A stretch of 64,000 bases of DNA from NCBI GenBank assembly GCA_963813235.1, contig CAWEYF010000017.1, forward strand, positions 30,090 through 94,089. The letters are read 5' to 3'. The stretch is from Candidatus Aminicenantes bacterium (GTDB lineage Bacteria; Acidobacteriota; Aminicenantia; Aminicenantales; Saccharicenantaceae). Shown one piece after another: positions 3,928 through 18,856 of the stretch. Within the stretch, counting starts at the first letter, position 1. Each line of letters begins with the position of its first letter. The notes below the pieces were generated by a model that was not told the DNA's origin, ran no database searches, and saw only the letters and a program-made list of their open reading frames with translations. Made by a program: the position numbers and the translations under genes.

Positions 3928-4117
3928 ATTCGCCCTCCGGCGTTCCGCAGCATCGGGCAGCTCCGGCCCAGGCGTCTCCCCCGGCCGCAACTTTGGGCCC
4001 TTTCCTTTATGTGTAGATTGGCCATATTGTTCTTTGGGCTATAAGCCGCCAGAGCCGGAGACCAGAGTGCTTGAAAAACTCACGTCATGTCTGGACCATT
4101 TTTCAGGAATGAGGTCC
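3928..4117 (+). repeat. island repeat unit (IRU) copy 1, ending in the 45-bp element
   Basis: Head cgccctccggcg...gggcag...ctcccc...ggccgca, middle agattggcc..ctttgggctataagcc, tail 4073-4117 gaaaaactcacgtcatgtctggaccatttttcaggaatgaggtcc. Aligns to the other IRU copies. Confidence 0.75.
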
Positions 4118-4145
4118 ACCGTGCCGCCCGGCCGGAGGGACGGTT

Positions 4146-4221
4146 CCGCTATGGTGAGGAGGGTGAATTCAGCGCCGAGGCCGGGAATTCGTCGCGGCGC
4201 GGAAATAGGGAACTCTTATCC
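4146..4221 (+). promoter_or_regulatory. promoter-leader (PL) module, leader-only copy
   Basis: ggtgaggagggtgaattcagcgccgaggccgggaattcgtcgcggcgcggaaatagggaactcttatcc aligns to the leaders at 7683-7757, 6733-6809(-), 9385-9429(-) and 12967-13043(-). Confidence 0.6.
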
Positions 4222-4246
4222 TTTAAAGAGCATCCTTTTGTTATTG

Positions 4247-4276
4247 TTGACACTTAGTTTCGCCGACCTTTATACT
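4247..4276 (+). promoter_or_regulatory. candidate sigma70 promoter (TTGACA-N18-TATACT)
   Basis: Hexamers at 4247-4252 and 4271-4276, upstream of the amidohydrolase gene. Confidence 0.5.
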
Positions 4277-4476
4277 CTAGAAAGGAAATCTAAAAATTAG
4301 GGACAGCCGCATCCCATTCTTTCATTCAAGCAATAAAGGAGGCTCCGCTTGGCGAAAAAACTCTTTTGGCCGGTTCTCCCGTGCTTGCCCATCGTCGGCA
4401 ATTCTTCCGCCGATGCAAGAACGCTTTGGAATTCCTCGAGAATTTCCCCAAAAATAAATAAAAAGGAGAAAAGACC

Positions 4477-5832
4477 GTGAGGAAAACCTGCCTGTTAAGG
4501 AATCTGACCGGATGTTTGGCCATCATTCTCTTGCTCTCGGGTGCGTCCGGGCAGGTGACGGCCATCAAGGCCGGCCGATTGGCTGATCCCGTCACGGGCA
4601 CGGTCCAGTCCGGGGTCATCATCCTGATCGAAGGCTCAAAAATAAAAGCCGTCGGCCAGGATCTTAAGATCCCTAAGGAAGCATCGATCATCGACCTCTC
4701 GGACAAAACTGTCTTGCCCGGTCTCATAGACAGTCATACTCATTTGTGCAACAGGTTCGACGCTAAAGGAGATGTGGGCGCCGCTTTGTTATTGTATAGC
4801 CTGTCCGTATCGACAGCCGACCGCGCCATGCATGGAGCCGCGAACGCCAAGGCCATGCTTGAATCCGGCTTTACCTGCGCGCGGGACATGGGAAACGCCG
4901 GTAATTACGCCGACGTGGCGCTTCGCCGGGCTATCAATGAAGGCGCCGTTCCCGGGCCGAAACTGTTCGTTTCAGGCAAGATCATCGCCCCTTTCGGCGG
5001 CCAGTTCTTTCTGGGTCCGGAATTCCCCGAGGTCGGCAAACAGGATTATATATATGCCGATACCCGCGATGAACTCCTGAAAGGCATCCGTCAGAACATC
5101 CATTTTGGATCGGACTGGATCAAGATCGTTGTCGATGACTACCGCTATATTTATTCGGCCGACGAAATCCGGTTCGTGGTCGAAGAGGCCGCCATGGCGG
5201 GATTGAAGGTGGCCGCCCACTGCGTCACGGAAAAAGGGGCGCGTCATGCCGCCGAAGCCGGCGTGGCCTCGATCGAACACGGGTTCGACATGAGCGATGA
5301 AGCCCTCGAGCTCGCGAAGAAAAATGGCGTCGTGCTCGTCGCCACGGAACTGACCCCGCTGATCATGGACGAATACCGTTTTTTCACCCAGACGCACGCC
5401 GGGATTATCGACCGGCTGAAGCGGGCTCACCGTATCGGTGTTCCGCTGGCCTTCGGCTCGGATATCATCGCCAATATCCCCGGACACAACTGGGGCAGCG
5501 CGTCGCTTTCCTCTCTGGAGACTTGGGCAGAGGCGGGCATTCCTGCCCTTGATATATTGCGGGCGATCACCATCAACGGCGCACGCCTGCTCGGGATCGA
5601 GAAGGAGCGGGGTCTTATCAAAGAAGGGATGGCCGCCGATATCATCGCGACGTCCGATAATCCTTTTGACAACATCCGCTCGCTTCAACACGTCCAATTC
5701 GTGATGAAAGACGGCAGCGTCTTTAGCCTGCCAAATAAAGGAGAACGATCGGTAGAAAAACGGTGTCAAGAGGGGCTCGGGGGTTCCGGGTTTTCAACGG
5801 CTAAAGCTGAGCTCGGTTGGCGAGTCAATTGA
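4477..5832 (+). CDS. secreted metal-dependent amidohydrolase family protein
   Basis: GTG start after AAAGGAGAA, followed by a signal peptide. Motifs LIDSHTHL, AAHC, IEHG and FGSD are typical of the amidohydrolase superfamily. The 3' tail runs into the island-arm repeat, so the true stop region is uncertain. Confidence 0.85.
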   Translation: MRKTCLLRNLTGCLAIILLLSGASGQVTAIKAGRLADPVTGTVQSGVIILIEGSKIKAVGQDLKIPKEASIIDLSDKTVLPGLIDSHTHLCNRFDAKGDVGAALLLYSLSVSTADRAMHGAANAKAMLESGFTCARDMGNAGNYADVALRRAINEGAVPGPKLFVSGKIIAPFGGQFFLGPEFPEVGKQDYIYADTRDELLKGIRQNIHFGSDWIKIVVDDYRYIYSADEIRFVVEEAAMAGLKVAAHCVTEKGARHAAEAGVASIEHGFDMSDEALELAKKNGVVLVATELTPLIMDEYRFFTQTHAGIIDRLKRAHRIGVPLAFGSDIIANIPGHNWGSASLSSLETWAEAGIPALDILRAITINGARLLGIEKERGLIKEGMAADIIATSDNPFDNIRSLQHVQFVMKDGSVFSLPNKGERSVEKRCQEGLGGSGFSTAKAELGWRVN

Positions 5833-5850
5833 ATGGACAGACTTATCCCG
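5772..5850 (+). repeat. island arm repeat (P'-arm copy), homologous to 21066-21146
   Basis: ggggctcgggggttccgggttttcaacggctaaagctgagctcggttggcgag... aligns to ggggtctcgggtgttccgggttttcaaaggccaaagctgaaatcagttggcgag... located next to the intact tRNA. Confidence 0.75.
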
Positions 5851-5851
5851 C

Positions 5852-5977
5852 CCTCCGGCCTTTTGATCCGAAGTTCCAGAATGTCCTTCTTTTTATTGGA
5901 TGAGACTAATCGGGAAGCCGCTTCGATTCGCCAGAAAACTCACATGATGTCCGGACCATTTTTAAGGGATGAGGTCC
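5852..5977 (+). repeat. degenerate tRNA-Arg core fragment plus P-arm copy 2 (internal island junction)
   Basis: cctccggccttttgatccgaagt resembles tRNA 3'-half positions. It is followed by about 100 nt homologous to 1644-1742, including the 45-bp element at 5934-5977. Confidence 0.75.
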
Positions 5978-6083
5978 GCCAAATCTTTGCTTCCCCGCTG
6001 TACCCCTTAGGGCGAATACTATCCTGCCCTTAGCTGGACGAGCCATTCGATTGTCTTGGCCGAGGCCTGGACGCAGGCGCAGG

Positions 6084-6719
6084 CTACTTAAGCTCTGGGA
6101 TCCGACGGGTCAGTTCCGCCCAGTCGTTTCCAATAGCCGCCTGGATAAGCTTGATTGCTCCCGCGAAGGCAGGCTCGGGCAAAGCCTGCCGCCAAATCCT
6201 AGTCATGTTCTCCCGATCGTTATGCCCTATGAGCGGATAAAGCCAGTTGACGACGTCGGGGAAGCGATTCTGGGGAATTTTCTGGGCCATCTTCCCCATG
6301 ATAGCCCCCTGGTTCGGAAGCGACACCCTTTCATTAAATATTCGATAAAGATGTGCTTCTTCCTTATTCAGGTGAATGCCCAAGTGGAAGTTAAAGGCCG
6401 CCGTCGATCGCGTTGTTGCTATGGGATCAGACTCCGCGACGGCCTTGTGGAGCGACTCGAACAATGAATCGAGACCACGATGGTCCCGCTCATACGCTTC
6501 GGCCATGAGCGGGGCAACGCTTTCAAGTGTCGGGAATACAAACTCCTCCTCTCCATTTGCGTGCCAGACAAGGATCTCGTTAAAGAAGAAATGACGATCC
6601 AAGACCAAGCCTAAGCCGGCGCGTCCGCGAGCCGCTTCATAGGCGGACGCATCCATCGCGGCCATGTCTTTGCGGAACGCGTTATGAATCGCCCGAATGG
6701 CATCAAGCGGAACGGTCAT
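6084..6719 (-). CDS. hemerythrin-like (HHE cation-binding) domain protein
   Basis: GAGGAG RBS. His/Glu spacing (IHNAFRKD, WHANGEEEF, HLNKEEAHLY) is characteristic of hemerythrin-like domains. Confidence 0.7.
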   Translation of the reverse strand: MTVPLDAIRAIHNAFRKDMAAMDASAYEAARGRAGLGLVLDRHFFFNEILVWHANGEEEFVFPTLESVAPLMAEAYERDHRGLDSLFESLHKAVAESDPIATTRSTAAFNFHLGIHLNKEEAHLYRIFNERVSLPNQGAIMGKMAQKIPQNRFPDVVNWLYPLIGHNDRENMTRIWRQALPEPAFAGAIKLIQAAIGNDWAELTRRIPELK

Positions 6720-6732
6720 GTTTTTCTCCTCA

Positions 6733-6841
6733 AAGATAAGAATCTACTTTCCCGCGGGATGGCGAATGCCCGCTCCTGCCGATGAATCTCCCCTCCTAAC
6801 CACGCCGGGACTATATCGCCGGCGGAGCGACGATGTCAATT
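6733..6841 (-). promoter_or_regulatory. PL module: sigma70 promoter (TTGACA-N18-TATAGT) plus conserved leader
   Basis: On the minus strand, -35 lies at 6834-6839 and -10 at 6810-6815. The leader gtggttaggaggggagattcatcggcaggagcgggcattcgccatcccgcgggaaagtagattcttatc runs into the RBS of the hemerythrin-like gene. Confidence 0.65.
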
Positions 6842-6947
6842 GCCGCGAAGAACGACTAAGCCTCCGTCCCCCAGAGACAGCACCATCTAGGACTGGAAAT
6901 TGCCCTATAAGCAAGGCGTTAGCGCTGAGATTAGCCCCTCCGCCTCG

Positions 6948-7439
6948 TTACTGTGCCCCATGCTGCTTGAGAAGCTCGACTACGTCCTTCTTGCCCTTCT
7001 CAACGGCCAAGTCCAACGGTGTCTTTCCTGTAGAGTTCCGGGCATTCACATCTGCACCTTTGACAATCAACAGCTCGGTCACGTCCTTATGGCCCAAAAT
7101 AGCGGCAACGTGCAGTGGCGTCGTCGTTCCGAGCTTGGCGTTCACATCCGCTCCTTTGACGATCAGGAGTTCGGCCATAACCTTGTTACCAGTAACGGCG
7201 GCATTGAATAGTGGCGTCGCACCCTTGCCAGTCTTGCCGTTCACGTCCGCTCCTTTGGCGATCAGCAGCTCGGCCACGTCCTGTGGCCCCAAAGGGCGGC
7301 CGAACTCAGCGGCGTCAAGCCTTCTTTATCCTTAGTGTTCACGTTCGCGCCTTTCTGTAAGTACCTAATCACGTCGGCAAGCTTGCCCGCTCTTACTGCC
7401 TCGAATAGATTGCCTTCCTTGCTCATAAATATTCCCATT
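6948..7439 (-). pseudogene. ankyrin-repeat protein, one frameshift (about 7290-7296)
   Basis: ORFs 7262..7465 and 6948..7292 both encode ANK repeats (GADVN.., TPLH.AA..GH). Reading ...LTPLSSAALWGH then QDVAELLIAKGADVN requires a 1-nt correction at cacag. The start ATG at 7439 follows GGAG. Confidence 0.75.
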
Positions 7440-7491
7440 CCTGCTCCTCTCAACATATATGCCAAAGATATTTATTGGAGTCAAATGAGAA

Positions 7492-7649
7492 TTTCCCCGC
7501 CCCACCTCTGTCCCCATAACTGAGGCCTGCTTCGCCCTCGGGCGTCCCGCAGCATCGGGGAGCTCCGGCCCAGGCCATTTCCCCTTGCCTCAACTCTCGG
7601 CCCTAGGAAGTGCGATCTTAGAGGAGCTGAGACCAAGCTGCTTATAGCG
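7492..7649 (+). repeat. IRU copy 2
   Basis: Contains the outer helix TGAGGC (7521-7526) / GCCTCA (7587-7592), the hairpin cgcc-ctcg-ggcg (7533-7544) and GGGGAG (7557-7562) / TTCCCC (7579-7584). Confidence 0.75.
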
Positions 7650-7757
7650 CCGATTGACATGGCCGCGTATCGGCCATATACTTCCAGCGGAGTTAGAGGA
7701 GGGAATTATTGTCCGGAGCGGGAATTCGTATTGTCGCCGAAAAGGAAACTCTTATCC
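7650..7757 (+). promoter_or_regulatory. PL module: sigma70 promoter (TTGACA-N17-TATACT) plus conserved leader
   Basis: -35 at 7654-7659 and -10 at 7677-7682, followed by the leader ggagttagaggagggaattattgtccggagcgggaattcgtattgtcgccgaaaaggaaactcttatcc. Lies upstream of the 7890 lipoprotein gene. Confidence 0.65.
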
Positions 7758-7889
7758 ATTAGAAGTATGGGATAGCATAATCTAAGGAACTGAAAGCGAA
7801 ACAACGAGAAGAAAGCTATCAAAATGTAGAGGCCTTCAAGAAAAGGGCGAGCCAATAACAAGTATTAGTCAATGATAAGAGGCAGATAA

Positions 7890-8387
7890 ATGAAAAAGCT
7901 AATTTATCTATTCGTTATAGCAATATTAATAAGCGGGTGTGCGACAATACGAAATTATAATAAGTTAGAACAACCCGAAGGTAGAATTTTGACAGCAAGT
8001 ATTGGAAGCACACTTTTTAGGATGAATAAATCAAGCAACCTGCCAAATGCCTTTGGTAAAGCTGACCTTTTTGGCGGAAAGGTTGACAAAGGTTATACAG
8101 AGCTAAAATTCAAAAGAATTAACGAGAATGGAAACTTAATCTTACAGATTACCGATATTAATAAATCGTCAACGGAAAGTACTATGACTAGATATAAGGC
8201 AAATAAAGTAGATGTTTCATCTAGTAGCACAATAAATATAGGAGAAAATTCAGCCCCCGATCAAACCGATTTTGAATTTGACCCCAAAAAAGAGAAATCT
8301 CTCACTATTGGTGGGGTAGAGATTACTTTTATTGAAGTGACTACTTACAGCGTTAGATATAGGCTGGCTTTTCGTGCAAGCGAGTAG
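7890..8387 (+). CDS. lipoprotein, function unknown (AT-rich cassette)
   Basis: Signal peptide with lipobox LISGC. Composition is markedly AT-richer than the flanks and no domain was recognised. Confidence 0.7.
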   Translation: MKKLIYLFVIAILISGCATIRNYNKLEQPEGRILTASIGSTLFRMNKSSNLPNAFGKADLFGGKVDKGYTELKFKRINENGNLILQITDINKSSTESTMTRYKANKVDVSSSSTINIGENSAPDQTDFEFDPKKEKSLTIGGVEITFIEVTTYSVRYRLAFRASE

Positions 8388-8579
8388 GTAGAACCGGAGT
8401 AAAAAAGTGATCGCGATCGCGCGGGATAACCTTAGCTAGTCCCCAAGAACTGGACAGGGCGATAAGTAGATATTGCACGTGCTATATCTCAAAAGGAGTA
8501 TGGTTTGTCGGAGGTCGAACGAGGAGGGAAGTACATGAACTGGCGCTCCTAGCCCTAGAGGGGCTGTCATTCTTTTGCC

Positions 8580-9380
8580 TTATTTGGATTTTTGTTGCTC
8601 GTCGAGATGCCTTAGATACTTTATAGCCATGTCCCGAGCAATCGTCCGAGCCTCATCAAGCTCTTCAGCAGTAGCATCACGGAGTCTAGCGGCAAACAGT
8701 CCACGATGGCGTCCTTGGTTCAGTGGCAAGTTACATGCCAGATGCCGGAGCCTCCTCCATTGATCGATATGGAGAGCAGCCTTAGCCTTGCCCTGGGATC
8801 CAAATTTTTGCCCCAATGCTTCCCAAACCTCATATAAATATACGAGTTCATTTCCAGGATCTCTTACTGCATCATCAAAACTGTCCAGTATCTTGCGCGC
8901 TGTTGGATCGGTCTCGCAATAACACGCTGAAAGCTCTGCCAGGTTCTTCGCGGCCTCGATCCGATCTCGGCGCGTATCATGGACTACGCCCTTATCATTG
9001 GTGGAAATAATATCCGCATGATCTGTTATCATCATTTGGTACGCGGCGTGCACCACGAGAGTCGTGTCTCTTCTACCATCGGGCCACACACGATTGATGG
9101 CTCCGCCGTGAATATCAAACGCTTGTCGTCGGATCAGTTGCGCCCCAAGAAAATAGTAGTTCAATTCCTTCGTTAGCGAGTCACGAAGGCCTGGTTCCGA
9201 GTCAAATAAATCAGCACTCATGCGGGCAGTGATATGTCCCGCCTCGATTTCGATAAGACAATTCTTGCGCTCCCAGATAATTTTTTCTTCAAAATAGCCT
9301 GGAGGCGCGTATTGCCACTCGATCTCAATCTTTACCTCAGGCGTGTTGGCGGCGATTCGGGTCCTCCTTTTTCCGCGCAA
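8580..9380 (-). CDS. hypothetical protein (start codon unresolved)
   Basis: 266-aa ORF with protein-like composition. Its 5' end overlaps the PL leader. The first in-frame ATG is only at 9221, while an SD-like AAAGGAGGA at 9363-9371 is followed by an in-frame ATC. Confidence 0.55.
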   Translation of the reverse strand: MRGKRRTRIAANTPEVKIEIEWQYAPPGYFEEKIIWERKNCLIEIEAGHITARMSADLFDSEPGLRDSLTKELNYYFLGAQLIRRQAFDIHGGAINRVWPDGRRDTTLVVHAAYQMMITDHADIISTNDKGVVHDTRRDRIEAAKNLAELSACYCETDPTARKILDSFDDAVRDPGNELVYLYEVWEALGQKFGSQGKAKAALHIDQWRRLRHLACNLPLNQGRHRGLFAARLRDATAEELDEARTIARDMAIKYLRHLDEQQKSK

Positions 9381-9384
9381 GCTA

Positions 9385-9461
9385 AATTCCTGCTCCGGCT
9401 AATTAATCTCCCCCCATGAGCATAACGGAAGTATATCGTCGGCCTGTTGTCCCTGTCAATT
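9385..9461 (-). promoter_or_regulatory. PL module: sigma70 promoter (TTGACA-N18-TATACT) plus conserved leader
   Basis: On the minus strand, -35 lies at 9454-9459 and -10 at 9430-9435. The leader is ggggggagattaattagccggagcaggaatttagcttgcgcggaaaaaggagga. Confidence 0.6.
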
Positions 9462-9654
9462 CGCCCTCGGGCGTCGCGTAGATCCGGGGAGCTTCGGCTC
9501 AGCCGTCTCCCCTGGCCTCATGTCTCAGCCCGGCACTCTATGGGTAGAGTAGATTGGCCTCTCGGCTCTCTGGAATACAGGCCTCTTGTGCCAGGGGCTT
9601 TATGGCTTGTACCTCTCACTTCAGAGGTGGTATATTGAGCGCGGGTAGGTCACG
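9462..9654 (+). repeat. IRU copy 3 (with internal candidate promoter TTGTAC-N18-TATATT at 9607-9636)
   Basis: Hairpin cgcc-ctcg-ggcg at 9462-9473, helix GGGGAG (9486-9491) / CTCCCC (9507-9512), GGCCTCA at 9514-9520. The tail is homologous to the other IRU tails. Confidence 0.7.
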
Positions 9655-9707
9655 TCGGGGGCATGCATGCAGCGCAACAAAGAAGACTTCTGTACAAAGG
9701 AGGAAGC

Positions 9708-10325
9708 ATGAAACCAATTCGCATGGTCAGTGTTATGCTCGTTGTCGCTGCGTTGGCTGCCTGTGTGTCTAGGACTAGGTGGGAGTTGGGGTTTAGAGAT
9801 AGTCTGCTTGTGCGGCTCAAATGGATTCCGAATGAGACGGACAATCAACCTTCCGTACTCGACATCACGGGTGGCCTGTTTACAGTCCGTTTCGATCCCG
9901 TGGCGGACAAGCGCAACAAGGGACGACAAATTGGCGAGAATACCGAGGGCAAGAGGCCGAGGCCGATCATTACCAACGACAATGTCGGCACGTTTCTGGA
10001 CAAGTGGATTACGGATAAGATGCATGGCCTCGGGCTGACGATAACACAAGATAACCCCGAGCGCGTCATCACGCTGGAACTAATCGAACTGTGGGCCATC
10101 GAATCGACCAGCTACCATTGTGTGATTCGGGTCAAAGTGCAGGTCCTGACGCCGGAGGGTAAGGAGATTTGGGGCGGAGTTATCGCCGGCATTGGCGAGA
10201 ACTGGGGAAGTTCGCTGGATGAAGTGAACTACCAGGAGACGATCAGCAACGCGATTCTCGACTTGATCTATACACTGGCGAAAGAGCCGAAGTTCAATCT
10301 CGCGCTGAAGAAGCAGCCGTCATGA
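9708..10325 (+). CDS. lipoprotein, function unknown
   Basis: ATG at 9708 after AAAGGAGGAA. Signal peptide with lipobox LAAC. The longer ORF from 9663 lacks an RBS. Confidence 0.7.
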   Translation: MKPIRMVSVMLVVAALAACVSRTRWELGFRDSLLVRLKWIPNETDNQPSVLDITGGLFTVRFDPVADKRNKGRQIGENTEGKRPRPIITNDNVGTFLDKWITDKMHGLGLTITQDNPERVITLELIELWAIESTSYHCVIRVKVQVLTPEGKEIWGGVIAGIGENWGSSLDEVNYQETISNAILDLIYTLAKEPKFNLALKKQPS

Positions 10326-12966: not shown

Positions 12967-13077
12967 GGATAAGTATTTCCCTTTTCCGCGACGGGACGAA
13001 TTCTCGCTCCGACCGATGAATCTCCCCCCTTAACCACGCTGGTAATATACGTTCGGCCGCTTGGCGATGTCAATTAG
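12967..13077 (-). promoter_or_regulatory. PL module: sigma70 promoter (TTGACA-N18-TATATT) plus conserved leader
   Basis: On the minus strand, -35 lies at 13068-13073 and -10 at 13044-13049. The leader is gtggttaaggggggagattcatcggtcggagcgagaattcgtcccgtcgcggaaaagggaaatacttatcc, about 175 nt upstream of the 12789 start. Confidence 0.65.
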
Positions 13078-13130
13078 CCTAAACTGGGTCAGAATATGAG
13101 GGGAAGCGCTCAGCCCTCCGGAATCCGGGC

Positions 13131-13346
13131 CTTCCCCGCCCCTCTCCCGTCTATCTAAGTGAGGCCTGGTCCGCCCCATAAAGGGCCCTGCAGAACCGTG
13201 GAGCTCCGACCCGGCCGACTCCACCGGCCTCACCTCTCAACCCCGGCAGATGGGCAAATAGCTCTCTAAGGTATAGGCCTCCAGCCCAGGGACCATAAGG
13301 CTTGAAAATCTCAGCTCAGAGGTAATACATTGAACGGGGGTTGGTC
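13131..13346 (+). repeat. IRU copy 4 (with internal candidate promoter TTGAAA-N18-TACATT at 13302-13331)
   Basis: Outer helix GTGAGGCC (13159-13166) / GGCCTCAC (13226-13233). Hairpin GCCC-N6-GGGC at 13173-13186. Helix GTGGAG (13198-13203) / CTCCAC (13219-13224). Confidence 0.75.
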
Positions 13347-13448
13347 ATTACCGCTGACTTTCGACAATTTCTTAACAACTTTTTCACAACTTCCCCCCGG
13401 GACGTATCTAGATTATTGGCAGAGAATAAATGGTAAAGGGGATTTATT

Positions 13449-14018
13449 ATGAGAAAAGCAGGACTTAGCGGGAGAATGGGAAGGGCCGTGTCTGTGTTGC
13501 TGGTTATTTCACTCTTGGGGTTTTCACAAAACCTTATCGCCGGCGAAAGACACGGGGCTATGCTTTCGTTACAGAAGAAGGATGGCCATCAAGAAGACGG
13601 CGAATTGATCGCAGTGAAACCGAGCTCTCTTTTGCTCTTGAATTCGCTCTCAGGAGCAGACGTCTCCATTGAAGTCTCGGACATCAGCGCTATTAGAGTT
13701 GTCAAGAAATCAAGAGCTTGGGCTGGCCTCGGATTCGGCGCGCTGGGAGGGGCAGCGATGGGCGCCATCATAGGTCTTGCCTCCGGGGACGATCCGCAGA
13801 GGGAAGATTTTTGGGGTAATATGTTTAGGTTTTCAGCGGGAGAAAAAGCCCTTTGGACCGGATTTGCTCTCGGGGTTGTCGGAGGGGTGGTCGGATTGAC
13901 AGTAGGCGCATTAGCGGGAACTGATAAAACAATCCAGTTCGAGGGGAAGAATGATATAGAGATTCAACTCGCTTTGGGGAAGCTGAAACAAAAGGCACGC
14001 ATCCCCGACTTCAAATGA
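13449..14018 (+). CDS. secreted/membrane glycine-zipper protein, function unknown
   Basis: Signal peptide, plus two Gly/Ala-rich hydrophobic stretches (GLGFGALGGAAMGAIIGLASG and GFALGVVGGVVGLTVGALAG). Confidence 0.6.
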   Translation: MRKAGLSGRMGRAVSVLLVISLLGFSQNLIAGERHGAMLSLQKKDGHQEDGELIAVKPSSLLLLNSLSGADVSIEVSDISAIRVVKKSRAWAGLGFGALGGAAMGAIIGLASGDDPQREDFWGNMFRFSAGEKALWTGFALGVVGGVVGLTVGALAGTDKTIQFEGKNDIEIQLALGKLKQKARIPDFK

Positions 14019-14023
14019 TCCTT

Positions 14024-14202
14024 TCCTTTAGTGAGGCCTAATCCGCCCTCGGGCGTCCCGCAAATCTGGGTAATTCCGGCCCCGCTGCCTTTCCTGGCTT
14101 CAACTCTCGGCGCTGTCCCGTATGAGCAGATCGGCCAAATGGCTCTTTGGGCTATCGCCCGAGAATCTTCTGCCAGTCCTTTTTTCAGGCAGAAACGTCT
14201 CC
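14024..14202 (+). repeat. IRU copy 5 (tail is a degenerate 45-bp element)
   Basis: GTGAGGCC (14032-14039) / GGCTTCA (14097-14103), hairpin cgcc-ctcg-ggcg at 14045-14056, and the tail gccagtccttttttcaggcagaaacgtctcc. Confidence 0.7.
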
Positions 14203-14203
14203 C

Positions 14204-14659
14204 TTACGCATCTGAATCCTCCTCCCCCGAGTCCCCCTTAGAAGAAGTTCGACGGCTTTTCCAGGAGGTGATCGCCACCACCCAGCAAAGTATCCCGGCC
14301 ATGATAAAGGGAACAAAGGGCTCTGAAGAGGATCTATCAAGGAACGAAGCAATGATAAGCCCCGTCCCGATGACGGGCAGGATTATCGCTTTCGCTTTAT
14401 TCTTAGCCCTCTTACGGCTCTTCTGGTAGGACGCGAAATGCTCGTCACAGAAATAGAACGGATAGACCGGCGAAAGGCCCTTGGTGAAGAAATGAGTCGC
14501 CGCCTTGGCGCACTCCCGGCACTTCACGTTCTGTTCCAGGCAAACGGTCTTTTTGCATTTATAACAATCAGCCAGCAGGTTCCCATCCTTCAGATATCCA
14601 AGGTCGAAATTGAGTCCCTTTCTGCATTTTGGGCAGTAATAAGAGGTCACGGTGGTCAT
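14204..14659 (-). CDS. Zn-ribbon membrane protein, function unknown
   Basis: CPKC...CYKC...CREC cysteine pairs plus two C-terminal TM segments. ATG at 14659 follows GAGGAG, 20 nt after the stop of the upstream ankyrin gene. Confidence 0.6.
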   Translation of the reverse strand: MTTVTSYYCPKCRKGLNFDLGYLKDGNLLADCYKCKKTVCLEQNVKCRECAKAATHFFTKGLSPVYPFYFCDEHFASYQKSRKRAKNKAKAIILPVIGTGLIIASFLDRSSSEPFVPFIMAGILCWVVAITSWKSRRTSSKGDSGEEDSDA

Positions 14660-14679
14660 GTTAAACGCTCCTCGATCGC

Positions 14680-15762
14680 TCAACGCTTAAAATTAGCGTA
14701 GAATCTTCGAGCCGCCTCCAGGGTGCCCTTGCCGAAATGATTCTGGTCTGCATTCAGCCGGACGAGAGCGTCGGGTCCGAGCCCGCAACAGTCCTCGCAT
14801 TTCAACCACGATCCGATCAGATACCCCTCGCCGAAATTGATTCTCTTATTGCAAACGTCGCAACAGGCTTCCGCCCTCTGCCCTTTGGACCACCATTCCC
14901 GGGCCAGCGCCTGCATATAGGTCCTCAAGGCTTCCATATCAGCCAGGGTGACCTCGTCGGAGATCGCGCCCGCCGCCTCCAGGATTTCGACGATATTTGT
15001 GTGACCTGTCCGTCTGGCGACCATGACGGCGGTATCGTGATGCTCGCCCTTTTGGTTAACGGCGGCTCCGCTTCCGATCAGATCTCGCACAATATCGGCA
15101 TGACCATTCGCCGCCGCTTCCATCAAGGCGGTTCTGCCCCGGTATCCTCCGGCATTGATGTCGGCCCCCAGCCCTATGAGAACTTCTACGGCCTTCCTGT
15201 GTCCGTTTTCCGCCGCCCGTGTCAACGCGGACCCATAGGGACCCTGGCCTTCCAGACCAACGCCTGCCGAGGCCAATATCTTTACAGTTGAGGGCCGTCC
15301 GTCCGAGGCGGCCATCCATAGAGCAATCCCACCGTATTTCTTGAGAATCTCCTGCCCGCCGGGGGCTCCGATCAACAGCCTGAGAATCGCCTCATCGCCT
15401 CTTCTTGCTGCTATTTCCAGGGCCGTCCATTCTACAGTGCCGCGGACCTTTTTTGCCCGGAGATCAGCCCCCGACCCGATCAGCAATTTGACAGCCTCGG
15501 CGCTTCCGGACTCGGCGGCCAGAAGGAGTGCGTGTTGGACGTCCCCCCCTTTTTCAATGAACTCCGAAAGCTTATTGATCTGATCCCTGATGATATATTC
15601 GGCATACTTCGCCTTCGAAAGGTCCTCCTCGCTGATTCTCGGGATATCCTTGGCCTTTTCCCGGGCCTCCTGATCTGGAGAAAGGACGGGCTCACCGCAC
15701 TTAAAACAGCTTGAAACGTTGCCGAACAAACCCGCTCCACACTTAGGACATGACGAGGCCAT
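14680..15762 (-). CDS. ankyrin-repeat protein with N-terminal Zn ribbon and C-terminal Cys-rich domain
   Basis: CPKCG..CFKCG at the N-terminus, at least 5 ANK repeats (GADLRAK, GADINAG, GAAVNQK), and a C-terminal CCDVCNK...CEDCCG. Confidence 0.8.
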   Translation of the reverse strand: MASSCPKCGAGLFGNVSSCFKCGEPVLSPDQEAREKAKDIPRISEEDLSKAKYAEYIIRDQINKLSEFIEKGGDVQHALLLAAESGSAEAVKLLIGSGADLRAKKVRGTVEWTALEIAARRGDEAILRLLIGAPGGQEILKKYGGIALWMAASDGRPSTVKILASAGVGLEGQGPYGSALTRAAENGHRKAVEVLIGLGADINAGGYRGRTALMEAAANGHADIVRDLIGSGAAVNQKGEHHDTAVMVARRTGHTNIVEILEAAGAISDEVTLADMEALRTYMQALAREWWSKGQRAEACCDVCNKRINFGEGYLIGSWLKCEDCCGLGPDALVRLNADQNHFGKGTLEAARRFYANFKR

Positions 15763-16003
15763 CTTCCCCTCCCTCGCCGTGACAATAATCCCATTTGTAA
15801 TGGACCCAGCTCATCCGGATTCTCTGGGGCGAATCCTTCACGGGCGGAATAATACCATGTCGTGAATAATTGAGACAATCCTCGTATTGAATCGCGTAGG
15901 AAGGGCGATCTTCGGGATGTTACATATGGGGGAAAAATGGAGTGGCTACCCCCTACGGGCGAAATACTCATAATGGGGAAGCCGAAAGACACGAAATCGC
16001 TCT

Positions 16004-16063
16004 ACGGGCGTCCTGGCTCGAGATAGAGGCATATCGACGCTTTGCCCCGCAAGATTTCGGACC
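16004..16063 (+). repeat. 60-bp repeat (R60) copy 1
   Basis: A 28-nt identical core atagaggcatatcgacgctttgccccgc (16023-16050) is shared with 17011-17038, and the flanks are similar. Confidence 0.7.
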
Positions 16064-16150
16064 TCGCGGTTTAGAGAGGAATGCGTCGCGTATTTTCGAG
16101 GCCTATCGTGGCTGAAAACTATATTGGCAGAGAAGGCATCGAGTTACTAG

Positions 16151-16262
16151 GGCCCCTCTCCCGTCCTTAAAGGTGGAGTTTGGTCCGCCCTCGAGCGTCC
16201 CGCAAGACTGGGGAGCGCAAGTCACGCCAGCCCCTCCCCCCACTGACGTGGGGAAAGATTGT
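16151..16262 (+). repeat. IRU copy 6 (truncated tail)
   Basis: ggcccctctcccgtc head, cgccctcgagcg, helix GGGGAG (16210-16215) / CTCCCC (16234-16239), and a possible outer pairing GTGG (16173-16176) / CCAC (16240-16243). Confidence 0.65.
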
Positions 16263-16275
16263 CTAGCTCGACTTT

Positions 16276-16809
16276 TTACGGGCTCTTTCTAGTCTTAATC
16301 GACTTGCTTTGGAAGTTTGGCATCCATGTCTGGCCGTCAACAGAGAGTTCGCGCTTGTCGATGAAGCTCATGAAATCAGCGGCAAAGACAGCGTTCCCCC
16401 GGATCTTATACTGTTTCTCTCCCAAACGAACGGTACCGGAATATTCCACGGTCGTGCCGTCAATGGTATAGGTAACGGCGTTGACACTCCCGTCGCTGCT
16501 AAAGCCGGTCCAGAAGAACTTTTTGTTCAAGGCGTCATAGCCATCAATCTCATACCAACTGGAGATTCCGTCTTCCCCGCGCCATTCCACAAAGAACCCC
16601 CCCAGGATTGGCCGGACCGTCTGTTTCCCAATATACTTTCCTGCGGGTCCGAGCGGAGTAGCTTGGTTCTCGCCTTCATAGTTCCAGTCCCCAATCCAGA
16701 TATTCAGCTTCATTTGCTCCGGCCCAGGCTTCGGAGCAGCTGTCTGTGCCTGGAGTGCGCCCGCAAAAACCAAGATGACGAGGCCGACCGCAAACCCAAA
16801 GCGTTTCAT
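16276..16809 (-). CDS. secreted protein, function unknown (DUF1579-like, tentative)
   Basis: AAGGAGGGG RBS and a signal peptide ending ALQAQ. The beta-rich sequence has conserved W/G pattern. Confidence 0.65.
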   Translation of the reverse strand: MKRFGFAVGLVILVFAGALQAQTAAPKPGPEQMKLNIWIGDWNYEGENQATPLGPAGKYIGKQTVRPILGGFFVEWRGEDGISSWYEIDGYDALNKKFFWTGFSSDGSVNAVTYTIDGTTVEYSGTVRLGEKQYKIRGNAVFAADFMSFIDKRELSVDGQTWMPNFQSKSIKTRKSP

Positions 16810-16859
16810 AGAACCCCTCCTTTTAAAGCGATGCAGAGACGCGGGGACGGCAAAGAGAG

Positions 16860-16940
16860 ATGTTCGCTAAAGGTTGCCTTCGAATTCCCCCAATCTCTTG
16901 CTGGTCTAATCATAACGCCGCAAAGATATGATGTCAATTC
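16860..16940 (-). promoter_or_regulatory. partial PL module: sigma70 promoter (TTGACA-N17-TATGAT) plus shortened leader
   Basis: On the minus strand, -35 lies at 16932-16937 and -10 at 16909-16914. The leader retains gagattgggggaattcgaagg. Confidence 0.55.
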
Positions 16941-16991
16941 GAAGGGTAGAATAACGCCCCGGGTGAATAAGTAGACTTTTCCCCATGTCAC

Positions 16992-17051
16992 GCGGGCGTC
17001 TTTGAGCGAAATAGAGGCATATCGACGCTTTGCCCCGCGAGGTCTCGGACC
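16992..17051 (+). repeat. 60-bp repeat (R60) copy 2
   Basis: See 16004-16063. The identical core is at 17011-17038. Confidence 0.7.
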
Positions 17052-17390
17052 AAGGGTGTACGGTTTCGGTATTGTGCATCTCCGGGCGCCCTGTTCCACG
17101 CAATCTGTGCGCCGGGGGAGACGGGTAGGGGCCAGGCAAGCGCCAAACGGCGACAGAACTAACGTCTTCCCCATCCGGCGAGGTCTCCATACTTCCCAAT
17201 TGGATTTGTACTGAATCCGATGGCTTTAAAGGAATAGCGTGATGGACCGTGTTCTTCGCCAAGTGCTTGCTAACGCTATCTGATGGCGAACGTTGTATTA
17301 TGCATAAAATAGGAATATAGTCTTAGTGACGGCGCAGGAAAGGAAACGAAGCAGGTCCCCATCAACACTTTTTCCCATCTCTACAAGAAG

Positions 17391-17804
17391 ATGTGCGGTA
17401 CCGCGGACGAGATTCAGCAACTGTGGCCCACCGCATGGAGAGATGGGAATGATTGTTGTGAAAAGGGAAAATACGAAGACGGCTTTTCCAAAGAACTGCA
17501 TCTAGAAGGCTTGAAAATCAAGGAGAGGGAAAAGCTTCTGAACGGGATTTACTGGATCCCGAACGACCTGCAGCTTCGGGCCCGGCCTTTGTTCAGTAAT
17601 ACTTTGAATCGCAATATGACGTTGATTTTAAAAGACCTCCAAGCCTACCTATTGGACAAGAGGATGGCCGGGAAGGTCAAGGAATACTTTACGGGAGATG
17701 AAATCAATTCTGCCCTGACTCTCATGTTCGTCATGAAGGAAAGGTTCAAAAAAAGATGGGATTTTAAACACGAGGGTTGGGTCAAAATCGAATCCCCGGA
17801 TTGA
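17391..17804 (+). CDS. hypothetical protein
   Basis: 137-aa ORF with no clear RBS. A candidate promoter TTGTAT-N17-TATAGT lies about 70-100 nt upstream. No domain was recognised. Confidence 0.35.
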   Translation: MCGTADEIQQLWPTAWRDGNDCCEKGKYEDGFSKELHLEGLKIKEREKLLNGIYWIPNDLQLRARPLFSNTLNRNMTLILKDLQAYLLDKRMAGKVKEYFTGDEINSALTLMFVMKERFKKRWDFKHEGWVKIESPD

Positions 17805-17839
17805 TATAGTTAAGAGCCCGCCCCCCCGACGTGCGCTCG

Positions 17840-18229
17840 TTAGGCGGCGTGGTATTTTTCGAGCATTCCGACGACGTTCTTCGTCGTGACATGGTTATGA
17901 AACCGGAAGCCGCCGCCGAAGTTTTTCGGGATATGCATCATCTCGTGGATGATCGTATTCTCTTGATCATCGTCCGAGAGCCTGTCAAACCGCTCGGAGA
18001 TGAATTCGAGGGCATAGAACGCTTTAACTCGCATCGCGACCTGCAGGATTTTGCTCATCCCGTGACACCGAGCGATGACTCTCCTAGCCGAGGATCCGAA
18101 GCTTCTGATGCAGACGACTTTTCCCGGATCGATGTACCGGAGGTTCAGCGTTCGAACGATATCCTCGAACCGTGCCTGGATATCTCCCGCGAGTTCGTAG
18201 CTAATCCTCTGAGATCGTTTCTTTGTCAT
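17840..18229 (-). CDS. small putative Zn metallopeptidase (HExxH), paralog 2
   Basis: Motif IIHEMMHIPKNFGGGFRFH. Collinear similarity to the product of 11362..11769 (ARFxDIVxTLxLRxxD..VVCxRSxGSSARRVxARCHGMSK). Confidence 0.75.
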   Translation of the reverse strand: MTKKRSQRISYELAGDIQARFEDIVRTLNLRYIDPGKVVCIRSFGSSARRVIARCHGMSKILQVAMRVKAFYALEFISERFDRLSDDDQENTIIHEMMHIPKNFGGGFRFHNHVTTKNVVGMLEKYHAA

Positions 18230-18469
18230 CAGATTCCTTTTAAATCACGGCGGTACGATATTTCAGGCCCAACGAGGTTGTCAATACGTCTCCGAGGTCG
18301 GTTTTTCCGTCCGCGCCGTTTCAATCGAAGCGCAGGGCATCCACGGGGTTGGTACGGGCGGATCTCAGCGACGCTTTTCCAGACCCTCCCGATGTGCGTG
18401 ACCGCCTCCTTGAAGGGCTTCCCGGCCGGGCCGTCTTATCCGGCCTCAGTCCTTGTAACAGGAAGCGGA

Positions 18470-18727
18470 TTATAGTTCATAGATAATGAGGATGTCTGGC
18501 GCATCAGAAGGCGGTTCTCTGCGAATCTTCTTCACTCCATACCGTGTTTTTATAATTTCACTACAAAGAGCTCCGATGATATTAGGGTAGTCGTGTTTTA
18601 TAAAACCCATTCCTTGATGAATATCCGTCGCCCTAAATGAAACGCGGGATAACCCATTTTCTTTTGCTGGCTTGATATAGTGATCGTAAACATACTCCCT
18701 AATTCTATCCGCATCCCTTGTTCTCAT
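18470..18727 (-). CDS. hypothetical small protein
   Basis: 85-aa ORF, AT-rich, upstream of and co-oriented with paralog 2. No domain was recognised. Confidence 0.45.
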   Translation of the reverse strand: MRTRDADRIREYVYDHYIKPAKENGLSRVSFRATDIHQGMGFIKHDYPNIIGALCSEIIKTRYGVKKIRREPPSDAPDILIIYEL

Positions 18728-18766
18728 CTTTCTTATAGTCTATCACCGCGAGGCTTAAGATAGCTA

Positions 18767-18856
18767 CCCCGCGAGGGGCGTCCCGCAAGGCCGGGGAGCA
18801 GACACAAGATCAAGAAGACTCACATTATGTCTGGACTTTTTTTAAGGGATAAGGTC
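18767..18856 (+). repeat. IRU copy 7 (internally deleted: head fused to the 45-bp element)
   Basis: Hairpin CCCC-GCGA-GGGG at 18767-18778, tcccgcaaggccggggagc, then agaagactcacattatgtctggactttttttaagggataaggtc (18813-18856). Confidence 0.7.

Follow-up and report, generated by a model that had tools for sequence, protein, structure and literature searches.

A Co-oriented ~110-bp Repeat Unit between the Gene Cassettes of tRNA-Integrated Islands in Uncultured Aminicenantes: a Candidate Cassette-Boundary Recombination Site

The ~75-nt module that a first-pass annotation had noticed between genes of an Aminicenantes island is a real repeat, and it is the conserved core (M1) of a larger DNA unit of ~110 bp, which sits in one orientation between the small gene cassettes of tRNA-integrated islands. 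The host of the unit is the cargo side of a tRNA-integrating genomic island family in uncultured Aminicenantes. The copies of an array are co-oriented, they are linked to a tyrosine integrase gene and an HTH gene, synteny breaks, hybrid copies, and half copies occur within the unit, and its sequence is conserved in blocks. The earlier suggestion of a recombination or cassette-boundary site thereby gains comparative support. We give an even chance to the reading, drawn from sequence comparison, that the unit is a cassette-boundary recombination site; most likely it marks the point at which cassettes are swapped, in an integron-like layout with neither an integron integrase nor attC sites.

The island and its array

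The window (the whole stretch of 64,000 nt analyzed here) contains an integrase-less array in a low-GC island, whose boundaries are a tRNA-Arg gene and, at the distal end, a 48-nt repeat of that gene's 3′ half (98% identical to 21201 to 21248). No recombinase was found in the window island. The degenerate tRNA fragment at 5827, together with copies of both island-end flanks (5767 to 5849 and 5852 to 5978), is the junction of two tandem islands.

1592 to 1639, − strand: 48-nt copy of the tRNA-Arg(CCG) 3′ half, distal direct repeat bounding the island
5827 to 5874, − strand: degenerate tRNA-Arg fragment
21203 to 21279, − strand: intact tRNA-Arg(CCG) gene, proximal island boundary (ARAGORN; Rfam tRNA, 70.3 bits)
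6747 to 6841, − strand: D4, near-consensus sigma-70 promoter and leader
9367 to 9460 (−), 12981 to 13075 (−), 7653 to 7744 (+), and 4118 to 4205 (+): further D4 copies

All seven copies of the module first reported, and the fragment at 10345, are where they had been placed; every copy lies on the + strand, and the neighboring genes point both ways. Copies do stand at cassette boundaries, but "nearly every boundary" was an overstatement, as there are seven copies and two or three half copies for ~19 genes. When up to 3 mismatches were allowed, a 19-nt core pattern matched five times in the window, always on the + strand (0.16 expected), with no match from 21 to 64 kb, and the remaining 42 kb of the window have no copies. 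The nhmmer M1 profile recovered the six longer copies, all on the + strand (3907, 7509, 9447, 13147, 14022, and 16161); the copy at 18767 was placed by a repeat finder and by eye.

3907 to 4003, + strand: M1 copy 1, M0 and outer-helix left arm absent (nhmmer, E = 2.5e−20; alignment)
3990 to 4066, + strand: M2 extension of copy 1 (nhmmer, E = 4e−20)
4074 to 4117, + strand: D3-type IS3 end closing copy 1 (nhmmer, E = 2e−13)
7483 to 7606, + strand: M0-M1 copy 2, complete, without M2 (nhmmer, E = 5e−23)
9447 to 9534, + strand: M1 copy 3 (nhmmer, E = 6e−20)
9523 to 9652, + strand: M2 (9523 to 9603), then the IS3-like right repeat IRR2 (9605 to 9652) (nhmmer, E = 9e−17 and 2e−13)
10342 to 10381, + strand: M1 right-half fragment (ending in CCGTCTCCCCCGGCCTCA; repeat family D7)
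13131 to 13245, + strand: M0-M1 copy 4, with the GTGGAG/CTCCAC variant (nhmmer, E = 2e−19)
13235 to 13347, + strand: M2 (13235 to 13298), then IRR2 (13300 to 13347) (nhmmer, E = 7e−11 and 1e−12)
14019 to 14155, + strand: M1 copy 5 and partial M2, between the convergent ends of two genes (nhmmer, E = 3e−22 and 2e−10)
16151 to 16262, + strand: M0-M1 copy 6, right half diverged (nhmmer, E = 1e−18)
18422 to 18448, + strand: M1 right-half fragment (repeat family D7)
18767 to 18856, + strand: copy 7, left-half M1 interrupted after GGGGAGC, where a D3-type IS3 end follows (18807 to 18856)

The ~110-bp unit consists of M0, which begins with TGAGAATTTCCCC, and M1, which ends at GGCCTCA; a segment M2 and an IS3-type terminal repeat often follow as optional extras. 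In copy 3, the D4 promoter takes the place of the left arm (junction GTCAATT/CGCCC). D4 is part of the mosaic, and its orientation tracks gene direction. Five promoter-like sites match at 11 of 12 positions, four of them in D4 copies (6839, 7654, 9459, and 13073). The cassette genes have near-consensus promoters of their own, which accounts for their free orientation.

Co-orientation, breaks, and hybrid copies in related contigs

Related sediment contigs contain about 55 to 60 distinct copies. M1 is co-oriented in every multicopy contig, that is, in the window (seven copies), in six contigs with three copies, and in seven with two; at least 12 independent arrays are left once overlapping contigs are removed, and by our own count the probability of co-orientation by chance is ~2^−24. 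Conservation comes in blocks: in 15 copies not picked by the search pattern, CGCCCTCGGGCGTCCCGCAG, GGGGAGCTCCGG, GCCGTCTCCCC, and GGCCTCA are kept and the loops vary. The cassettes are tiny (0.6 to 1.6 kb, one or two genes), and many have their own strong promoter.

Between contigs at least 88% identical, 27 of the 53 internal synteny breaks fall in M1 zones, which make up 4.6% of the bases. Three contigs (L184, L181, and L204) have one left context and left half followed by three different right halves, L195 and L184 have a common right half and different left sides, and the switch between halves is bracketed within GGGGAGCTCCGG. Half copies are joined to unrelated DNA with their ends clustered in a stretch of ~20 nt; the 10 right-truncated copies end at profile positions 50 to 69. 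One block of unit, gene, and unit (L189, 1688 to 3353) recurs with 96% identity in another context (L207, 9123 to 10781). The apparent break points, at profile positions −40 to −20, 60 to 69, 75 to 78, and 83 to 92, do not fall at one position, and homologous exchange in an invariant core would also break at its edges; both points speak against a site-specific reaction.

Association with a tyrosine integrase and an HTH gene

A Phage_integrase gene of 362 to 364 amino acids lies beside a divergent HTH_17 gene in seven contigs (L183, L189, L217, L182, L180, L201, and L218). In all seven, the array lies beyond the HTH gene and runs in its direction, and in four M0 starts at the HTH stop codon (AAG/TGAGAATTT). 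Intact relatives have the order tRNA fragment, tyrosine integrase, divergent excisionase-like HTH_17 gene, and M0-M1 at the HTH stop, after which come more co-oriented M0-M1 copies with a cassette between each. The polarity of the window is that of these intact elements, with a tRNA fragment, M1 copies pointing right, and the tRNA gene on the − strand. L189 and L218 have the same backbone with different cargo: their integrase and HTH genes are 98% identical, and this identity ends exactly at the stop codon of the HTH gene. Between elements the HTH proteins are only 36 to 60% identical and the integrases 37 to 80%; M0-M1 DNA is ~80 to 85% identical between integrase-bearing elements, and among elements whose integrases are 37% identical, the unit is better conserved than the coding sequence beside it. 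The integrase family targets tRNA genes and is not that of integrons, its members scoring 67 to 81 bits on TIGR02249 (integron integrase; cutoff, 265) with a match split in two. The link is not obligatory, since close integrase relatives (L300 to L307, 72 to 89% identical) have no M1 at all and the window island has no recombinase.

These data bear on another explanation, which we regard as unlikely, namely, that M0-M1 is a passive backbone scar, a conserved noncoding segment 3′ of the HTH gene (for example, a 3′ UTR or operator). Many related islands would have accumulated as tandem insertions at tRNA genes, with later loss of the integrase modules, and the repeats would recombine by ordinary homology, with no dedicated function. 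Consistent with this, arrays contain HTH gene remnants (L183, 126 to 290; L180, 1033 to 1134), so that decayed tandem elements may account for some of the multiplication, many cassette-borne copies keep the last HTH codons (AAGTGA) at the left edge, and the window has its tandem-island junction (5767 to 5978). In addition, tRNA integration is directional, so that tandem elements would be co-oriented, and the break points lie at the edges of invariant blocks, as predicted for homology-driven exchange. Tandem accretion of integrative elements and cis-mobilizable elements (CIMEs) at tRNA and other att sites has been reviewed (PMC5704250). As in these cases, the island occupies a tRNA gene whose 3′ half is duplicated, the second, degenerate att junction indicates two elements in tandem, and the elements have no integrase of their own and could be mobilized in trans. 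However, the window has seven units and only two tRNA fragments, and hence repeated integration at the tRNA alone does not explain the array. Unlike in CIME accretion, the repeated unit is not a tRNA-derived att core, and each "element" between two units amounts to a single gene. The tiny size of these one-gene cassettes also speaks against a scar; tRNA fragments and integrase pseudogenes were looked for between array units, and none were found. The clustered ends of half copies joined to unrelated DNA and the conservation of the unit beyond that of flanking coding sequence also argue against a scar.

We hypothesize instead that the unit works as DNA, as a site of cassette gain, loss, and exchange. 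Crossover between two co-oriented units would free a circle of one cassette and one unit, and crossover of such a circle with a resident unit would insert it; with this mode of insertion, every unit would face the same direction regardless of how the genes are oriented. The exchange is presumably not general homologous recombination but a site-specific reaction of the tyrosine recombinase of the island, whether or not the HTH protein takes part, and we infer that it takes place close to GGGGAGCTCCGG, where the long hairpin has its tip. As a point against this model, inspection by eye revealed no inverted core-type binding sites flanking an overlap of 6 to 8 bp, the arrangement of classical tyrosine recombinase sites.

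IS3-type ends and MITEs

The unit was first described as having no terminal inverted repeats, which does not hold for complete units in relatives, where IS3-like ends (TGACCTGCCCCC ... GGGGGTAGGTCA) are present. Four window copies retain the right-hand end (4074 to 4117, 9605 to 9652, 13300 to 13347, and 18807 to 18856), and further ends lie elsewhere in the island.

1689 to 1742, + strand: D3, IS3-family terminal-inverted-repeat sequence, solo end (nhmmer, E = 3e−19); D3 also flanks orfA/orfB in L147 (1641 to 2853)
5924 to 5977, + strand: D3-type IS3 end (nhmmer, E = 2e−18)
11313 to 11350, + strand: IS3-like terminal repeat facing the opposite way (left-end orientation; nhmmer, E = 0.003), inverted repeat with 9623 to 9652
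20182 to 20270, + strand: 89-bp IS3-derived MITE, left-type end and then D3 end
20876 to 20918: 43-bp mini version of the 89-bp MITE

That IS3-like terminal repeats frame some copies points to transposition, against a recombination site. The unit could then be the body of an IS3-derived MITE or mobile insertion cassette, a nonautonomous element of ~290 bp (left repeat, M0, M1, M2, and right repeat) moved in trans by an IS3-family transposase, with arrays growing by insertion beside existing ends in a fixed orientation; we consider this quite improbable. L184, L199, and L204 have complete units, framed by 12-bp terminal inverted repeats (TGACCTGCCCCC/GGGGGTAGGTCA), the left repeat abuts M0 at ~10 loci, and the right repeat follows M2 at ~12. 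The related end D3, found at 45 loci that are nearly all in Aminicenantes MAGs, borders a genuine IS3-family element of 1.2 kb that has orfA and orfB; short MITEs built of such ends are common, the island being strewn with solo ends and tiny MITEs as for IS3-family MITEs, and IS3-type transposase genes adjoin the array in L210. The array also resembles IS26 pseudo-compound arrays, in which directly oriented repeats are separated by passenger genes. Unlike in such systems, most units lack one or both ends (only ~3 of ~55 distinct copies have both, and none of the seven window copies has the left one), the unit encodes no transposase, and no target site duplication was seen in the one complete copy examined. 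Random transposition predicts neither strict co-orientation nor the fixed start at the stop codon of the island-backbone HTH gene in four diverged elements. The left repeat retains the last HTH codons, which suggests that the MITE derived from the island backbone and not the reverse.

Folding and covariation

The three helices described for the module are conserved inverted repeats, and several copies have the three-way junction as their fold of minimum energy. Only three window copies have the outer helix TGAGGCC/GGCCTCA, those at 7492, 13131, and 14024 (the last with a G-T pair); the copies at 3928 and 9462 have no left arm. The change to GTGGAG/CTCCAC at 13198/13219 is real but isolated, and the compensatory pattern read into it was not confirmed as covariation. 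In 40 distinct copies from related contigs, 88.4% of cells are paired (87.9% in shuffles), double-change cells number 4 (3.3 in shuffles), and the covariation score is 0.105 versus 0.099, which 123 of 500 shuffles reach. RNAalifold retains helix 3 alone, with a covariation term of −0.09.

This absence of supported covariation, which the first-pass annotation had itself named as grounds for rejection, leaves an RNA structure unsupported, and a structured RNA or transcriptional insulator, which had been offered as one possibility, is very unlikely. Such an RNA would be part of the transcript of the HTH gene or of the cassettes, would fold into the three-way junction, and could serve as an sRNA, a 3′-UTR stabilizer, or a factor-dependent terminator that insulates cassettes; the conserved stems with varying loops and the orientation of the unit, which is that of the upstream HTH gene, would fit. 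However, Rfam gave no match to the module even at E ≤ 5, none of the hairpins is followed by a T-tract, and the terminator scan gave one weak site inside a copy (3980 to 3997) and not the module hairpins. Folding z-scores are modest, mostly 0 to −2 (−2.3 to +0.8 as RNA on the + strand; −0.8 to −3.9 as DNA), several functional-looking copies have no outer helix, and many copies are head-on to adjacent genes.

Integrons and REP elements

REP elements are typically 20 to 40 nt long. The unit resembles REP/BIME sequences in being intergenic, GC rich, hairpin forming, and repeated, and differs in being confined to the island, never inverted, ~110 bp long, and associated with an integrase, with no RAYT-like gene seen; the earlier mention of a REP/BIME-like family does not fit these features. 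This host repeat, or a classical integron attC array without its integrase, is the least probable origin and can be largely dismissed: RYYYAAC...GTTRRRY pairs, on either strand of the island, number 0 versus 3.1 in shuffles, so that the initial statement that attC R/L boxes are absent stands, and the associated integrases are not of the integron type. The layout does resemble that of an integron. Clusters of attC sites without an integrase are known as CALINs (PMC4889954), and as in integrons and CALINs, a recombinase gene at one end is followed by co-oriented imperfect palindromes (~70 to 110 bp) between small cassettes of diverse accessory function, with hybrid sites and integrase-less clusters. 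Unlike in integrons, the recombinase is a phage-type, tRNA-targeting enzyme with an N-terminal Int_N domain rather than IntI, the platform includes an excisionase-like HTH gene, the sites are without R/L boxes and AAC/GTT triplets, and the cassettes have their own promoters and either direction. The sites are nearly identical to the platform-proximal one, and hence the attI/attC dichotomy is missing; the apparent breaks fall in the middle of the site and not at its edge.

The mosaic repeat contains a discrete unit of about 110 bp

The unit described here is a discrete, conserved and strictly co-oriented DNA element that is confined to islands and marks the borders of exchangeable cassettes. 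Self-comparison and profile searches split the mosaic repeat (about 90 to 215 bp) into four types of part. These include M1, which is the conserved head of the first-pass annotation and lies exclusively on the + strand; M2, an extension of about 78 nt on its right; and IS-type ends of two kinds, D3 (...GTCTGGACCATTTTTMAGGGATGAGGTCC) and IRR2 (...GGTGGTAYATTGA.CGGGGG.AGGTCA). In alignments, similarity has a sharp left limit at TGAGAATTTCCCC, where a C-rich segment (M0) begins, and a sharp right limit immediately past GGCCTCA. These limits give a unit, M0-M1, of about 110 bp with the ends TGAGAAT... and ...GGCCTCA. About 15 copies are extended by M2, a linker and IRR2, with similarity stopping exactly at ...GGTCA, and a left terminal repeat, TGACCTGCCCCC..ATAAATCGGTCCAGG.., stands in front of about 10 copies. 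Conservation is block-wise: in 15 copies that lie outside the selection by the search pattern, CGCCCTCGGGCGTCCCGCAG, GGGGAGCTCCGG, GCCGTCTCCCC and GGCCTCA are conserved at 80-99%, the loop segments at only 20-70%.

The seven copies reported before (starting at 3928, 7492, 9462, 13131, 14024, 16151 and 18767) and the fragment at 10345 were found in their places, every one on the + strand, and the genes beside them do run in either direction. A 19-nt core pattern (at most 3 mismatches) gave five matches against 0.16 expected and none outside the island, where the window comprises 42 kb of core genome, and an nhmmer profile found the six longer window copies (E=1e-18 to 1e-23). Among genome representatives the exact 19-mer matched 48 times, 47 of them by chance in GC-rich genomes; the sole relative was L027 (related contigs and loci are designated by L numbers). 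The metagenome scan with YCGCCCTCGGGCGTCCCGCAR yielded 46 contigs, nearly all of one sediment metagenome set (Ga03152xx). The M1 profile made 69 matches, which correspond to 60 distinct copies, and scans of viral contigs with M1 and D3 gave no matches.

All copies share one orientation in every multi-copy contig, namely the window with seven, six contigs with three and seven with two. Removal of overlapping contigs leaves at least 12 independent arrays, for which co-orientation has a chance probability of about 2^-24 by our count. In the relatives as well, genes between copies face either way. Their cassettes are functionally diverse (esterase, endonuclease/phosphatase-family protein, FMN reductase, CAAX protease, dehydrogenase), and many cassette genes have no family match.

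The window array lies in a composite tRNA-Arg island

The copies lie in a low-GC island at 1592-21200, with about 50% GC inside and 64% outside.

Features of the window island
21203-21279, - strand: intact tRNA-Arg(CCG), right island border
1592-1639: 48-nt copy of the tRNA-Arg 3' half, 98% identical to it, left island border
5827-5874: degenerate third tRNA-Arg copy
4118-4205, + strand: promoter and leader part D4
6747-6841, - strand: D4
7653-7744, + strand: D4
9367-9460, - strand: D4
12981-13075, - strand: D4

Like tRNA-integrated genomic islands, the window island has a tRNA gene and a distal direct repeat of it; neither Pfam nor tblastn searches detected in the window the integrase that adjoins the att site in such islands. 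Sequences from both island ends recur around the third tRNA copy (5767-5849 matches 21062-21144, and 5852-5978 matches 1617-1743). Hence, 5767-5978 is the junction of two islands in tandem, and the 19.6-kb island consists of one element of about 4.2 kb and another of about 15.3 kb. The order at the junction is proximal-flank copy, degenerate tRNA-Arg fragment and distal-flank copy, and both islands are integrase-less.

The window belongs to an Aminicenantes-like genome; its conserved symporter gene at 21565-23394 is about 80% identical to the counterparts in Candidatus Aminicenantes MAGs. In related MAGs, the neighbourhoods of the symporter gene have neither the island nor the repeat, and in L049 the tRNA-Arg still adjoins the symporter. 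The products of the island genes are about 19 small accessory proteins without relation to one another, including a TPR protein, an amidohydrolase, a hemerythrin, ankyrin proteins, lipoproteins, a LysE-type protein, two phage-type metallopeptidases, an SPFH protein and Hsp20.

Several cassettes carry the part D4, 95 nt with a near-consensus sigma-70 promoter (TTGACA-N17/18-TATAnT) and a conserved AGGAGG leader, which may encode a short peptide (MVRRGDSAPRAGI...). D4 occurs in both orientations and is always directed into the neighbouring gene, the downstream cassette genes being unrelated to one another. Of the five best promoter-like sites of 3.8-14.3 kb, four are D4 copies, and D4 is also present at L154 255-350 and in L183, L199, L204 and L304-L306. 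Promoters borne by the cassettes would account for the unconstrained gene direction, which differs from that in integrons.

The native place of the unit is an integrase module that targets tRNA genes

In relatives that are intact, an integrase module that targets tRNA genes includes an excisionase-like gene, and the unit has its native position immediately behind this gene. By Pfam, L183 and L189 encode a Phage_integrase protein of 362-364 aa with an Int_N domain and, divergent from it, a small HTH_17 protein of the excisionase family (TIGR01764), and tblastn found the same pair in L217, L182, L180, L201 and L218. In 7/7 contigs with the pair, the M1 array is on the side of the HTH gene and co-oriented with it. 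The HTH stop codon is the start of M0 in L189, L217, L182 and L183 (AAG directly followed by TGAGAATTT). The TGA at the left edge of the unit was also considered as the stop codon of any upstream gene, which was rejected; it is specifically the HTH-gene stop or a remnant of it. Between elements, the HTH proteins are 36-60% and the integrases 37-80% identical, and the M0-M1 DNA is about 80-85% identical.

Judged by its sequence, the integrase beside the arrays is not an integron integrase. An integron integrase (IntI) is marked by an IntI-specific additional domain; on TIGR02249 the array-side integrases reach 67 and 81 bits against a cut-off of 265, with the match split in two, and on PRK15417 39-51 bits against a cut-off of 435. 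They belong to a large family (3320 relatives at E<=1e-40) that targets tRNA genes. The distance between the integrase and a tRNA or tRNA fragment is 7-30 nt in relatives. In L304-L307, a complete tRNA-Arg(ACG) is 7 nt from the integrase stop; in L300, an element of about 6.9 kb has a complete tRNA-Arg(TCG) at one end and, at the other, a tRNA fragment of 33 nt that lies 26 nt past the integrase. By our reading of the sequences, tRNA 3' fragments follow the integrase directly in L301 (Arg-type), L189 (Leu-type), L217 (His-type) and L183 (Leu-type). In L135, a fragment 89% identical to the window tRNA-Arg lies downstream of the HTH gene.

The tRNA fragments abutting the integrases and the side on which the arrays lie define an intact layout: tRNA fragment, integrase, HTH gene(s), M0-M1, (cassette + M1)n, tRNA gene. 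The window has the same polarity on its + strand, with the fragment at 1592-1639, M1 pointing rightward and the tRNA gene on the - strand. It has no integrase/HTH module, and a solo IS3 end (1689-1742) is at the place expected for it. It follows from the layout and this polarity that M1 is not a tRNA-derived att site and is part of the cargo side. Moreover, the close integrase relatives in L300-L307 have no M1, so the unit is an optional cargo feature. The L300 element (4201-11147) is an intact tRNA-Arg(TCG) integrative element of the array-linked integrase family without M1 units; its cargo comprises a DarT-like toxin gene (with a faint Macro-domain match), a MerR-type regulator, phage-like genes and two HTH_17 genes.

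Traces of exchange are concentrated at the unit

Across the integrase and HTH genes, precisely up to the HTH stop, L189 and L218 share 98% identity; beyond it their DNA differs. A segment of unit, gene and unit (L189 1688-3353) recurs at 96% identity in L207, after another gene and a left terminal repeat. The L184-group contigs have in common a 260-nt left flank and the left half of the unit, followed by three different right halves, while L195 and L184 share the right half and differ on the left; together they bracket the switch inside GGGGAGCTCCGG. Among contigs at least 88% identical, 27 of the 53 internal synteny breaks are in M1 zones, which make up 4.6% of the sequence, and these breaks occupy profile positions -40 to -20 and 60-99 but no position in the interval. 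Ten right-truncated copies end at positions 50-69 and continue into unrelated DNA, and window copy 18767 is broken there too; right-half fragments are present in the window at 10342 and 18422. The break region, GGGGAG-CT-CCGGC-NNN-GCCG-T-CTCCCC, holds the tip of the long hairpin in the predicted fold.

Homologous recombination likewise gives breaks at the edges of invariant blocks, and the unit could be a passive scar at which exchange proceeds by homology. The HTH remnants within arrays suggest that the decay of tandem elements contributes. However, the window has seven units and two tRNA fragments; repeated tRNA integration alone is therefore insufficient to explain its array, and we consider the passive scar unlikely. 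On such a modest reading, a common boundary sequence would drive module exchange by homology, which would explain a constant tRNA-island backbone with turnover of its cargo.

We favour a dedicated recombination site over the rival readings, although at no more than even odds. Exchange at the unit may be site-specific and catalysed by the island integrase, alone or together with the HTH protein. If circles were inserted and excised by a single crossover, this would produce co-orientation and keep it.

Transposition has probably moved some of the units

A genuine IS3-family insertion sequence has D3 as its terminal inverted repeat. With 21 nt of D3 as the search pattern, 45 loci were matched, nearly all in Aminicenantes MAGs. 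At L147 1641-2853, an element of 1.2 kb that carries orfA (MKKSKFTEEQ...) as well as a DDE-type orfB is enclosed by two D3 copies. This element and those at L137 4710-6080 and L210 8437-10078 are full or nearly full length IS3-family elements with D3 ends, and have orfA and an orfB with a DDE-type rve domain. Short MITEs built from D3-type ends are common, two of them in the window (20182-20270 and 20876-20918); the D3-ended insertion sequence and its MITEs are abundant across Aminicenantes MAGs. The window island encodes no transposase genes, and among 20 cassette or flanking proteins of M1 contigs the sole recombinases were IS3-type rve transposases, with no serine recombinase and no HUH enzyme.

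The IS3-type ends on some copies imply that transposition moved at least some units, and the unit might accordingly be regarded as the body of a MITE. An IS3-derived MITE is expected to have ends matching an autonomous IS and a target-site duplication of 3-4 bp. The unit is only partly MITE-like: both terminal repeats are present in about 3 of about 55 copies (L184, L199 and L204, as an element of about 290 bp), with a single end in many others. No autonomous element bearing the two end types other than D3 was found, and no target-site duplication was seen in the two cases examined, the complete L184 copy (left flank ..ggaagaa, right flank agagaatg) and window 11313/13347 (AGT and TTA). We hence rate a MITE body as improbable.

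At several independent loci, D3 lies beside att fragments derived from tRNA-Arg, in constant relative orientation.

Loci with D3 beside an att fragment
1592-1742, window
5827-5977, window
L168
L165
L135, after the integrase

Either the IS targets these att regions, or D3 has a second role as an arm-type site.

The helices are conserved as sequence rather than as structure

The three helices described in the first-pass annotation are present as inverted repeats, but as a structure they are weakly supported, the outer helix occurring in just three window copies. Folding z-scores are modest, also when the reverse strand or DNA is folded. The compensatory change that had been emphasized is one variant only and does not add up to covariation. 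A structured RNA was to be doubted if covariation lacked support, and this was the outcome for 40 full-length copies (alignment A2). RNAalifold predicted helix 3 alone, with a covariation term of -0.09; 88.4% of cells in the three helices pair, compared with 87.9% in column shuffles; there were 4 double-change cells against 3.3 in shuffles; and the covariation score was 0.105 against 0.099, a value reached by 123/500 shuffles. The helices are thus kept as sequence rather than structure. Rfam at gathering thresholds matched tRNA alone in the whole window, and at E<=5 in 1-22 kb it matched nothing on the module or the D4 leader, only tRNA and sR23 (E=2.3, outside the module), the latter a weak chance match. 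With the covariation test negative and Rfam empty on the module, we regard an RNA or insulator as very improbable. A tRNA-like origin of M1, prompted by the 7-bp outer stem and the length of 72 nt, was rejected, ARAGORN and the tRNA model being negative. The M1 profile showed no meaningful similarity to the tRNA-Arg gene and its fragments (a single 20-nt match, E=0.09 in 420 nt).

Relation to integrons and REP elements

The outer ends of an attC site pair through its R'' (RYYYAAC) and R' (GTTRRRY) boxes, and REP/BIME elements are short palindromes of 20-40 nt, dispersed over the genome in both orientations and accompanied by a RAYT gene. Either identity is hardly credible for the unit. A regular-expression search of both island strands found 0 RYYYAAC/GTTRRRY pairs 40-130 nt apart against 3.1 in shuffles, which together with the sub-cut-off TIGR02249 and PRK15417 scores speaks against attC/IntI membership. 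Against REP/BIME, the unit measures about 110 bp, is in no contig found inverted and has no copies in the core genome of the window, and the scanned window and M1-contig proteins include no RAYT-like gene.

In layout, the unit is like integrons and CALINs (PMC4889954) and like integrative and cis-mobilizable elements that accrete at att sites (PMC5704250). The CALIN definition asks for at least two co-oriented sites between cassettes, and the window has seven. We found no description of the unit in the literature on Aminicenantes and integrons or on integron-like cassette systems. We regard the system as an array of cassettes on putative recombination sites, which may be an independent analogue of the integron.

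To our knowledge, integrons are so far the sole well-understood builder of single-gene cassette arrays through site-specific recombination, and they are detected via IntI and attC searches. It is conceivable, if on balance doubtful, that a second platform for gene capture, analogous to the integron and of independent evolutionary origin, exists in the tRNA islands of Aminicenantes. In it, a tyrosine integrase of phage type that targets tRNA genes and an excisionase-like HTH protein would move promoter-bearing cassettes in and out at a hairpin-forming site of about 110 bp unrelated to attC, and IS3-type ends would occasionally package the site as a MITE, seeding arrays elsewhere. If this is true, an uncultured phylum uses another recombinase and another site, gene capture by cassettes arose at least twice in evolution, arrays of a non-integron type are invisible to present integron finders, and the integrase and the unit are a new testable recombinase/site pair.

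Other repeats and genes in and beside the island

A 170-aa ORF rich in Lys and Glu (137-649, - strand) without a Pfam match lies just outside the island, beside an AhpC/TSA-family gene (826-1542). The 96-99-nt tandem periodicity at 7041-7318 and L049 6798-7787 stems from ankyrin-repeat coding sequence rather than from a non-coding repeat. Two paralogues of the PF18894 "putative phage metallopeptidase" (11390-11688, + strand, and 18201-17903, - strand) lie inverted in different cassettes with 69% DNA identity. An intergenic direct repeat of 59 nt (16005-16063 and 16993-17051, 86% identical) is also present in the related MAG contig L027 (5000-5055).
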